Assembly (NCBI RefSeq): GCF_054482595.1
Contig: NZ_CM137008.1
Direction: 5' to 3' (one strand)
DNA: 64,000 nt
Shown: one piece after another, positions 15,788 through 57,984 of the stretch
Layout of the letters: the number at the start of each line of letters is the position of its first letter
How positions within the stretch are numbered: position 1 is the first letter of the stretch
The notes under the pieces: generated by a model
Database searches by the model: none
What the model was told of the DNA's origin: nothing
Seen by the model: the letters and a program-made list of their open reading frames with translations, nothing else
Made by a program: the position numbers and the translations under genes

Positions 15788-16016
15788 CGACTAAAAGCCT
15801 CTTTGCGTCACATTTTTACAACAATTATTGCAGAGAAGATTAATGCCATTGGAATGAAGAGAGTAACGAATGGTTAAACTGGCTAACCCGAATGACGAAA
15901 AATTCTGGAAAACAGCACGCAATTTCGTCAGGTGATTATTTTCGTCCCTAAGGAAACCACATAGGATGCTCACGGGTGCCTGAGACTTTCTGTTTTCAGG
16001 CTAACCGGGAATCAGA

Positions 16017-16061
16017 AAGACGAAGGCCCCGACCGATATTTCTATCAACCGAGGCCAACGA

Positions 16062-16072
<11 letters not shown>
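16017..16072 (-). ncRNA. sokB: sokB antisense RNA of the hokB/mokB locus; position inferred, boundaries approximate
   Basis: Placed antisense to the mokB translation-initiation region by analogy with hok/sok architecture; no independent sequence recognition. Confidence 0.35.
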
Positions 16073-16269
<197 letters not shown>

Positions 16270-16340: not shown

Positions 16341-16514
16341 TCAGTTAGTGCATGTTTTTTTCGATGCACTAATAGAACCATCATTACAGACAAATTTGCC
16401 GCCTGCCGTACAGTGTGAGATCCCCCCTTTCGAACCAGAACAGGGTTTGCGCCCGGCATCGGCATAAAAGGAAACAAGCGTTCCCATAAACAAAATAAGT
16501 GCCAGTTTTTTCAT
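16341..16514 (-). CDS. ydcA: Small secreted protein YdcA
   Basis: 57-aa ORF MKKLALILFMGTLVSFYADAGRKPCSGSKGGISHCTAGGKFVCNDGSISASKKTCTN; below track cutoff. Confidence 0.8.
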   Translation of the reverse strand: MKKLALILFMGTLVSFYADAGRKPCSGSKGGISHCTAGGKFVCNDGSISASKKTCTN

Positions 16515-16684
16515 ATAACCTCCATGGTTTATCGAATCTTATGTTCGATTTGAACGTTATACGCTGGTTTATTTTGATACCGTTGATGAGATCAAAGATC
16601 GGGTGAATTGATTAAAAATAAGGCAGATGGACGTATGGGCAAGGATTATGGTTTTATTTGTCATACAAATAAATATAATAGGCG

Positions 16685-16748
16685 CTTCCGATGTAGACCC
16701 GTATTCTTCGCCTGTACCACGGGTCGGTTTTAGTACAGGCGTTTTCTT
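16685..16748 (+). ncRNA. rydC: RydC small RNA (Hfq-dependent, pseudoknot-forming)
   Basis: 64 nt CTTCCGATGTAGACCCGTATTCTTCGCCTGTACCACGGGTCGGTTTTAGTACAGGCGTTTTCTT matches the RydC sequence as I remember it; ends in hairpin plus U-tract. Confidence 0.8.
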
Positions 16749-16758
16749 TAAATATCCT

Positions 16759-17289
16759 TCAGGAACGTTTACGCGGCATCATGCGTAGAAGTGTGTTGTC
16801 CTTCCAGAAATAGTGGTGTGCCAGTGCAGCCGCAGCGTGCAACCCGATGAGAAAATATCCCAGATTCGCCAGCGTCTCATGCCACGACTTTAAGCTATCA
16901 ACCCGTTCGAAATTGGCCTCTGAAGCGTAAGGCATCGTCAAACCAAACACAAACCACGGGTTGCCCCGGTTATACATCATCACCAAACCAATCACTGGCA
17001 GCGCAATAAACAGGAGATAAATCACCAAATGTCCCAAATGCGCCAGTCCCGTCATCATCGGTTTCGGCTTAGGTATAATCGGCGGGGTTGGGTATTTCAG
17101 TCTTAACAAAAGACGAACCACCATCAGCACGAGAATTGAGATGCCACAGGAAACATGAATCATGTTGATGAGCGGCCGATCGCTACGTGGGAAGAAACCC
17201 CGAAACTCCATTGCGCAATACGCTGCGATAACCAGCAAAAAGACCAGCCAGTGAATGCTGATTTGTAACCTTGAGTATTTATTTTCCAT
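16759..17289 (-). CDS. cybB: Cytochrome b561
   Basis: Track ORF trimmed to MENKYSRLQISIHWLVFLLVIAAY... (176 aa). Confidence 0.9.
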   Translation of the reverse strand: MENKYSRLQISIHWLVFLLVIAAYCAMEFRGFFPRSDRPLINMIHVSCGISILVLMVVRLLLRLKYPTPPIIPKPKPMMTGLAHLGHLVIYLLFIALPVIGLVMMYNRGNPWFVFGLTMPYASEANFERVDSLKSWHETLANLGYFLIGLHAAAALAHHYFWKDNTLLRMMPRKRS

Positions 17290-17477: not shown

Positions 17478-18479
17478 ATGAGTAAAGTTGGTATTAACGG
17501 TTTTGGTCGTATCGGTCGACTGGTGTTGCGTCGATTACTTGAAGTCAAAAGCAACATAGACGTTGTCGCTATTAATGATCTTACTTCCCCAAAAATTCTC
17601 GCCTATCTGCTGAAACATGATTCAAACTATGGTCCGTTCCCCTGGAGCGTTGATTTTACGGAAGATTCACTTATCGTTGATGGGAAAAGTATCTCGGTTT
17701 ACGCCGAAAAAGAGGCTAAAAATATTCCGTGGAAAGCGAAAGGTGCAGAAATCATTGTCGAATGTACTGGCTTTTATACCTCCGCCGATAAATCGCAGGC
17801 GCATCTTGATGCTGGTGCGAAGAAGGTGTTGATTTCCGCTCCTGCCGGTGAAATGAAAACCATCGTTTATAACGTTAATGACGACACTCTGGATGGCAAC
17901 GATACCATTGTTTCCGTGGCGTCATGCACCACTAACTGCCTTGCGCCGATGGCCAAAGCCTTGCATGACAGTTTCGGGATAGAAGTCGGCACGATGACGA
18001 CCATTCATGCCTATACTGGCACCCAGTCACTGGTGGATGGCCCGCATGGTAAAGATTTACGTGCTTCACGCGCCGCGGCAGAAAATATCATTCCCCACAC
18101 TACGGGCGCGGCAAAAGCCATTGGTCTGGTGATCCCGGAACTGAGCGGCAAACTGAAAGGTCATGCGCAACGCGTGCCGGTGAAAACAGGTTCGGTCACT
18201 GAACTGGTATCGATTCTCGGAAAAAAAGTGACTGCCGAAGAGGTGAATAACGCACTTAAACAAGCAACCACCAATAACGAGTCATTTGGTTATACCGATG
18301 AAGAAATAGTCTCTTCCGATATCATTGGCAGCCATTTCGGTTCGGTGTTTGATGCCACGCAAACGGAAATTACCGCCGTGGGCGATTTACAACTGGTGAA
18401 AACGGTCGCCTGGTACGATAACGAATATGGCTTCGTCACGCAGCTTATTCGCACCCTCGAAAAATTCGCTAAACTCTGA
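17478..18479 (+). CDS. gapC: Glyceraldehyde-3-phosphate dehydrogenase GapC, intact 333-aa frame
   Basis: [19 protein letters not shown]..., catalytic SCTTNCLAP motif; continuous ORF. Confidence 0.9.
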
Positions 18480-49436: not shown

Positions 49437-49464
49437 ATGCTCTGGATAAGGATTATCCAATTCT

Positions 49465-49500
49465 AAAAAAAAGCCCGGACGACTGTTCGGGCTTGTCTTT
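49465..49500. terminator. Bidirectional intrinsic terminator shared by ydbK (+) and micC (-)
   Basis: Hairpin gcccggacgactgttcgggc flanked by A8 upstream and ttgtcttttt downstream. Confidence 0.6.
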
Positions 49501-49574
49501 TTATATGTTGGAAAATCAGTGGCAATGCAATGGCCCAACAGAAAATAAAATCTGTGACAATAAAGGCATATAAC
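49466..49574 (-). ncRNA. micC: MicC small RNA (porin-mRNA repressor)
   Basis: Minus strand reads GTTATATGCCTTTATTGTCACAGATTTTATTTTCTGTTGGGCCATTGCATTGCC...GCCCGAACAGTCGTCCGGGCTTTTTTT, matching MicC as I remember it; lies between ydbK and ompN. Confidence 0.8.
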
Positions 49575-49801
49575 CCGCGCAGAATAACGTATAGAAAATT
49601 AAAAGTATAATTTTTATTTTGTATGTATTATCTTCGATACATTCACCAGACTTATTATCATTTCAGAGGAATTATTTGATTAAGGTTTTACTTAAGGCGT
49701 AACAAATGATATTTATCAGCTAACTGAACTTCTCCTTTAGGATGTTTTCACTCCCCGAAATGGGGATAAAAGGCAAATAAAATAACTAAAGGATTTATTC
49801 A

Positions 49802-54382: not shown

Positions 54383-54505
54383 CAAAAAAAAGCCGACTCA
54401 TCAAAGTCGGCGTCGTACGAATCAATTGTGCTATGCAGTAATTCAAAAAAGGAAGTAAGACAATATGGAGCGCAACGCCCATCGCTTGACGTTGCATTCA
54501 CCTGC
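54383..54505 (-). ncRNA. fnrS: FnrS small RNA (FNR-activated)
   Basis: Minus strand reads GCAGGTGAATGCAACGTCAAGCGATGGGCGTTGCGCTCC...GCCGACTTTGATGAGTCGGCTTTTTTTT, matching FnrS as I remember it; terminator hairpin 54392-54411 plus U8. Confidence 0.8.
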
Positions 54506-57881: not shown

Positions 57882-57976
57882 CACCGGCGCAGAGGAGACA
57901 ATGCCGGATTTAAGACGCGGATGCACTGCTGTGTGTACTATAGAGTCTGGCGGATGTCGACAGACTCTATTTTTTT
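57882..57976 (+). ncRNA. mcaS: McaS (IsrA) small RNA
   Basis: sigma70-like promoter TTGGCA-N18-TATAAC (57846-57875), transcript ACCGGCGCAGAGGAGACAATGCCGG...TAGAGTCTGGCGGATGTCGACAGACTCTA plus T7; matches McaS as I remember it. Confidence 0.75.
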
Positions 57977-57984
57977 ATGCAGTT

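Follow-up and report, generated by a model that had tools for sequence, protein, structure and literature searches.

The question raised by this locus is whether the 64 nt lying beside the 3′ end of cybB are a genuine rydC gene and, if so, how that gene is controlled and how it stands in relation to its convergent neighbor. Knowledge of RydC goes back to the early 2000s: its crystal structure with Hfq has been solved, its targets have been mapped, and its repressor has been identified. The window analyzed here is a stretch of 64,000 nucleotides from NCBI RefSeq assembly GCF_054482595.1 (contig NZ_CM137008.1), with position 1 as its first letter. The gene and its two immediate neighbors are placed in the window as follows.

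16685..16749, + strand: rydC gene (Rfam RF00505; identity to b4597)
16759..17289, − strand: cybB, cytochrome b561/superoxide oxidase (open reading frame; 531-nt coding sequence as annotated in MG1655 and strain XH990)
16341..16514, − strand: ydcA, encoding a 57-aa periplasmic protein, divergent and on the 5′ side of rydC (open reading frame; MG1655 annotation)

An Rfam 15 scan of both strands of the whole 64-kb window aligns 16685..16748 (+) to positions 1–64 of the 64-position RydC model, RF00505, with 92.5 bits, the gathering score being 48 (E = 5.2e-17). The original prediction had placed RydC at exactly these coordinates and on this strand. Its reading of the 64-nt sequence, CUUCCGAUGUAGACCCGUAUUCUUCGCCUGUACCACGGGUCGGUUUUAGUACAGGCGUUUUCUU, as RydC is upheld by the Rfam score, by base-for-base identity to K-12, and by a gene order that is that of K-12. 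Alignment to rydC of K-12 MG1655 (b4597) shows 100% identity over the full length of the RNA. Across 16560..16800, the window and MG1655 differ at just two positions, both flanking the gene: K-12 has C where the window has G at 16623, and A where the window has G at 16660, the latter G creating a perfect YieP palindrome (see below). The length of the gene is 64 nt by the Rfam convention, ending at 16748, and 65 nt by the MG1655 annotation, which takes in one more T and ends at 16749. Besides all 64/65 nt of the RNA, K-12 has in common with the window the TSS and −10 box, cybB as convergent and ydcA as divergent neighbor, and the gene order farther out.

Of 5426 complete E. coli genomes, 5411 contain the 64-mer, 4063 of them in identical form. 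The rydC region is missing from 11–15 complete genomes, and of its roughly 5400 matches, five fall on records labelled as plasmids. From its sequence, the stretch is almost certainly the chromosomal rydC of an E. coli strain. That is, it is an already known gene, the K-12 type in another strain, and no evidence counters the RydC identification. The identification itself is nothing new; its use lies in annotation, as the PGAP annotation of E. coli genomes carries no feature at the rydC position. A mechanical 53-aa open reading frame at 16627..16788 (+) was dismissed, since it starts upstream of the TSS and is without support.

The surrounding genes run, as in K-12, in the order trg, sokB/mokB/hokB, ydcA, rydC, cybB, gapC, aldA, and ydcA has been named as the gene flanking rydC on its 5′ side in E. 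coli (PMC11340327). The cybB stop codon, TGA, occupies 16761..16759 on the − strand, and cybB and rydC are convergent, as had been predicted. Subtracting 16748 from 16759 gives 11, i.e., 10 intervening bases, or nine when the 65-nt annotation is used, which fits the earlier statement that RydC ends 11 nt from the cybB stop. Several further features of the neighborhood are noted here in their own right. The gapC gene (17478..18479, +) is an intact 333-aa glyceraldehyde-3-phosphate dehydrogenase open reading frame in the window, likewise in strain XH990, whereas it is a pseudogene in K-12 MG1655. The hokB/mokB/sokB type I toxin-antitoxin locus lies at 15974..16269 (+), with sok scoring 109.7 bits in Rfam and a 49-aa HokB open reading frame at 16120..16269; in E. 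coli E69, two tandem sok copies are found close to rydC. Inside ydcA, in the 5′ part of its coding sequence (16470..16485, −), there is a terminator-like hairpin followed by a T-run (GGGAACGCTTGTTTCC TTTTAT), which may be due to chance.

The RNA itself is divided as follows, nucleotides being numbered from +1.

16685..16697, + strand: single-stranded 5′ seed, nt 1–13, of which nt 3–13 (16687..16697) pair with the cfa 5′ UTR
16695..16702, + strand: 5′ arm of pseudoknot stem 1, nt 11–18 (Rfam consensus structure)
16719..16726, + strand: 3′ arm of pseudoknot stem 1, nt 35–42, carrying G37 and G39
16709..16717, + strand: 5′ arm of pseudoknot stem 2, nt 25–33, which forms the MFE hairpin and, with its partner, the terminator hairpin
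16733..16741, + strand: 3′ arm of pseudoknot stem 2, nt 49–57, left free in both search patterns
16742..16749, + strand: U-rich 3′ tail UUUUCUUU, the terminator tail (read from the sequence)

The conserved 5′ seed beginning at +1 (CUUCCGAUGUAG...) is present and identical to that of K-12. Both loops contain a U-U step, U23U24 (T at 16707–16708) and U46U47 (T at 16730–16731), and the UUUUCUU(U) tail is likewise in place. In the RydC–Hfq crystal structure, the U-U steps and the U-rich tail are contacts to Hfq, the tail sitting on the proximal face; RydC stability requires Hfq and an intact pseudoknot, and mutation of G37 and G39 destabilizes the RNA in vivo (PMC4337610).

Homologues for assessing the fold were collected by two routes. 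The first was independent of the RydC sequence: CybB orthologues at 74–86% identity were taken together with their surrounding DNA, giving 10 loci. The second used DNA patterns and added three more Escherichia loci and five metagenomic loci, four of them C. koseri-like and one Salmonella-like. The genome pattern, GACCCGTNNNCTTCGCCTGNNNCACGGGTC, matched only the three Escherichia loci; it gave no cross-genus matches because loop length or the bases of stem 2 are not the same in other genera. Nucleotides 1–18 are invariant in all 10 aligned homologues, a count in which the metagenome pattern had fixed nt 1–18 for five of the 10 rows (L016–L020), while nt 1–10 were left free for the three Escherichia loci of the genome scan, and CybB, not RydC sequence, was the basis on which both Citrobacter loci were chosen.

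The pseudoknot was taken as published, with stem 1 joining nt 11–18 to 35–42 and stem 2 joining nt 25–33 to 49–57, and its pairs were counted on the homologue alignment. Overall, 99.3% of the cells are paired, against 25–46% in controls in which the 3′ partners were slid by 1–3 columns; the two-stem H-type pseudoknot of the family is present. Stem 1 is paired in 98.4% of cells, the sole exception being A11·G42 of the window/K-12 allele. Save for this closing mismatch stem 1 is invariant, and it is therefore uninformative on covariation. Stem 2 is paired in 100% of cells, with compensatory double changes in four of the nine pairs among Escherichia, Citrobacter, and the Salmonella-like locus, as in the exchange of E. 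coli CGCCUGUAC/GUACAGGCG for C. koseri CACCUGCGU/ACGCAGGUG. MFE folding of the 64-mer recovers stem 2 alone and does no better than shuffles (z −0.48), a result that is uninformative, as expected, because the method does not model pseudoknots. A terminator-like match at 16710..16724 (+) is an alternative pairing within RydC rather than a separate element. The stem 1 closing pair (16695, 16726), A·G in the window and K-12, is A-U in all other aligned homologues, including the three divergent Escherichia loci.

Salmonella and Citrobacter RydCs are like that of the window in nt 1–18, stem 1, pseudoknot topology, U-U steps, and U-tail. They differ in stem 2, where three or four inner pairs are swapped compensatorily, CGU/ACG for the UAC/GUA of E. 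coli, and the loops of the Salmonella type are one nt longer. The primer sequences in PMC4337610 are of this Salmonella type, having CGCCUGCGU/ACGCAGGCG as stem 2 and one extra nt in a loop.

The control of rydC involves two elements upstream of +1.

16674..16679, + strand: −10 box TATAAT of the sigma-70 rydC promoter, 5 nt before +1 (C16685) (sequence)
16656..16670, i.e., −29..−15, no strand assigned: palindrome ATTTGT-CAT-ACAAAT (ATTTGTCATACAAAT), putative YieP operator (motif match)

The −10 box, a consensus hexamer at the mapped TSS, gives the gene a promoter of its own, and it is kept across genera as TATAAT or TATACT. No −35 box is recognizable at the rydC promoter, so that a sigma-70 consensus scan is silent there and finds no −35/−10 pair. 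The promoter has been described in the same terms, as having a consensus −10 and lacking a −35 box (PMC11340327). A reanalysis of TSS data reports that rydC has a secondary start at −96 bp relative to +1 (~16589, +), from which an RNA of ~160 nt running across the putative YieP operator would result (PMC7967276). With the promoter included, every RydC-family feature that can be tested computationally is present in the window, and none fails.

YieP, a regulator of the GntR/FadR type, represses rydC 20-fold, and Northern blots reveal RydC only when yieP is deleted (PMC11340327). A 2020 study lists rydC and ydcA among YieP ChIP-exo/RNA-seq candidates (PMC7642389). The 2024 study of repression reports the rydC promoter to be without a recognizable YieP site and one ChIP-exo study to omit rydC as a YieP target (PMC11340327). 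No site-level mapping of YieP at rydC was found in the literature examined. The reverse complement of the palindrome, ATTTGTATGACAAAT, agrees with the YieP ChIP-exo motif, atTTGTaTGAcaAAT (PMC7642389), at 15 of 15 positions on the − strand. It is the sole match to the motif with 0 mismatches in the window; chance alone would yield about 1e-4 exact matches in 128 kb. Conservation across genera extends to both 6-bp arms and to the spacing of 3 bp before the −10 box, the central triplet being either CAT or ATG; Salmonella and Citrobacter rydC agree with the window in the arms and in the operator-to-(−10) spacing. Conserved arms around a varying center are the behavior to be expected of an operator. 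We infer that the palindrome is a YieP operator whose occupation would occlude the promoter spacer; YieP would bind at −29..−15, as indicated by a motif match rather than a footprint.

The K-12 palindrome has ATTTAT as its left arm, with A at the position of 16660, and matches the motif at 14 of 15 positions. Counted as identical 69-mers, the 69-nt promoter segment occurs in the form seen in the window in 2236 E. coli genomes and in the K-12 form in 1233; therefore, both operator alleles are common. It is possible that K-12 does not display the typical strength of YieP repression of rydC.

Could rydC be intact here yet effectively silent, the perfect consensus operator imposing tighter repression than in K-12? 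The 15/15 match set against 14/15 in K-12 points that way, and RydC is undetectable even in K-12 unless yieP is deleted (PMC11340327). The perfect palindrome, however, is also found in Citrobacter and in the Salmonella-like locus, and the promoter segment is identical in the 2236 genomes; thus, it looks like a normal regulated state and not like a dead gene. The RydC RNA itself, moreover, is strongly conserved. We consider a silenced rydC unlikely. FnrS has been reported as a repressor of yieP translation. It is encoded in the window at 54388..54505 (−), so that this reported upstream regulator in the rydC cascade lies 38 kb from rydC; MicC (49457..49577, −) and McaS (57883..57978, +) are further sRNAs above their Rfam gathering scores.

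What the RNA would act upon is suggested by its seed. Nucleotides 3–13 form 11 contiguous pairs, one of them G·U, with positions −109..−99 of the cfa 5′ UTR at −17.7 kcal/mol, as computed with the cfa of MG1655, the strain's own cfa and yieP lying outside the window. This energy is equalled by one of 1000 shuffled seeds, and the duplex covers the GG|AUUAU RNase E site. The 61 nt around the target site are present in 5424 of 5426 E. coli genomes and identical in 4312. A full-length RydC–cfa duplex (−39.7 kcal/mol) was discarded, as it ignores intramolecular structure, and the seed result alone was used. Weaker repression by RydC has been reported for pheA, trpE, csgD, and yejABEF.

For the identical K-12 sequence, accumulation of RydC as an Hfq-bound RNA of ~64 nt and activation of cfa in vivo have been published (PMC6755755, PMC11340327). 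Activation by RydC is confined to the long cfa isoform, and RydC confers resistance to acid (PMC6755755), and a Rho-based mechanism of cfa activation has been described (PMC12691595). We suggest the following course of events for the gene in the window. The ~64-nt transcript would fold into the two-stem pseudoknot, leaving the 5′ seed single-stranded, and stem 2 with the U-tail would also serve as the intrinsic terminator of rydC. The fold would offer the two U-U steps to the Hfq rim and the U-rich 3′ tail to the Hfq proximal face. With Hfq, the seed would pair at −109..−99 with the long, sigma-70-derived cfa mRNA isoform, and this pairing would both lessen premature Rho-dependent termination in the 5′ UTR and mask the RNase E site. 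The outcome would be more cyclopropane fatty acid synthase and higher acid resistance.

Two other Hfq-dependent sRNAs, ArrS and CpxQ, act, as RydC does, through the long cfa 5′ UTR. The site of ArrS overlaps that of RydC, and ArrS likewise activates (PMC6755755). CpxQ, in contrast, is a processed 3′-UTR fragment that represses from an upstream site, whereas RydC is a primary transcript with a 5′-terminal seed and a pseudoknot.

The relation of rydC to cybB is best approached through its distribution. Among the 10 cybB loci, rydC is present at two, those of Citrobacter koseri and C. amalonaticus. In C. koseri, the two genes converge across a gap of 36 nt in which cybB has a terminator of its own; in C. 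amalonaticus, they are separated by an MFS transporter gene. The Salmonella-like locus has a rydC–cybB gap of ~80 nt. By seed search and filter-free local alignment, in which background scores were 17–28 against 62–65 for true matches, RydC is absent beside cybB in Klebsiella grimontii, Enterobacter, Lelliottia, Kosakonia, Trabulsiella, Shimwellia, Scandinavium, and locus L006. The range of rydC is thus far narrower than that of cybB and, together with the spacing in C. amalonaticus, this indicates that rydC is not dependent on cybB. In loci L006–L015, the gene on the far side of cybB is a different one from nearly every genus to the next (frmR-like, MFS transporter, LysR, oxidoreductase, fimbrial usher). 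The 3′ flank of cybB has the look of a junction prone to recombination, with rydC kept in some lineages only.

These loci bear on the idea that the hairpin and U-tract are simply a shared or bidirectional terminator of cybB, the RydC match being conserved 3′-UTR sequence and no independent sRNA gene being present. It is true that just 10 nt separate the element from the cybB stop and that nothing else resembling a terminator follows cybB in E. coli: no such site is predicted in the 10-nt gap or anywhere between the cybB stop and ydcA. On the cybB strand, however, the complement of stem 2 forms an 11-bp hairpin followed by AAGAAUAC; there is no U-tract, and hence this is not a canonical terminator. 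The element also has its own TATAAT and candidate operator, and what is invariant in it is the 5′ seed, for which a terminator has no use. C. amalonaticus has retained rydC in spite of the MFS gene between it and cybB; in C. koseri, cybB has a separate terminator beside rydC; and the eight loci of the seven genera named above and L006 have cybB without RydC. Finally, a primary transcript starting at RydC +1, the equivalent of 16685, is already published for K-12. We give practically no credence to a cybB terminator as the whole explanation, and rydC is treated in what follows as a gene in its own right.

The remark in the original prediction that the two 3′ ends nearly abut holds for the 3′ end of RydC and the stop codon of cybB. 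For the transcript ends it goes too far: no terminator-like element of cybB is predicted in the 10-nt gap, and therefore the cybB and RydC transcripts probably overlap. C. koseri differs from E. coli in this respect, its cybB having its own terminator between the two genes (ACCCCGCG-TAA-TGCGGGGT, then TTCTTTT; L008 2543..2561). On the − strand, 16658..16581 is 29.5% C and 7.7% G, a C/G ratio of 3.83 as compared with 2.29 at the 99th percentile of the window, and in composition it looks like a Rho site. The cybB mRNA 3′ end would most likely lie beyond the gap, antisense to rydC, with termination by Rho.

Such an arrangement invites the view that RydC acts mainly in cis, through a perfect 64-bp duplex with the cybB 3′ UTR or through polymerase collision, so that cybB and RydC levels would be coupled. 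Both the lack of a cybB terminator in the gap and the C-rich, G-poor, Rho-like tract beyond rydC, which implies antisense overlap, are consistent with it. Against it, no such effect appears in the papers found that mention both rydC and cybB, and the conserved seed together with genetically proven trans targets accounts for the sequence constraint. Nor is the arrangement conserved, given the cybB terminator of C. koseri and the intervening gene of C. amalonaticus. Cis action as the main role of RydC is thus reckoned very improbable, and a cis effect would be at most a layer added to the action of RydC in trans.

The literature search gave nothing specific on antisense or read-through transcription across rydC, and no paper addressing a cybB–rydC overlap was found. 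A more elaborate proposal is that cybB transcripts cross rydC, its promoter, and the YieP operator in antisense as far as 16658..16581, and that convergent transcription or the 64-bp duplex would couple CybB to the level of RydC and hence to membrane cyclopropanation; we offer it as a long shot.

To summarize, two small points, both testable, are added to what is known of RydC: the proposed operator and the possible read-through from cybB. The former links two papers, in that the 2020 YieP motif falls exactly on a palindrome conserved across genera, in a promoter for which the 2024 paper reported no recognizable site. It offers a testable explanation for the shut-off of rydC by YieP, at an operator in which one base varies among E. 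coli lineages, being perfect here and mismatched in K-12.
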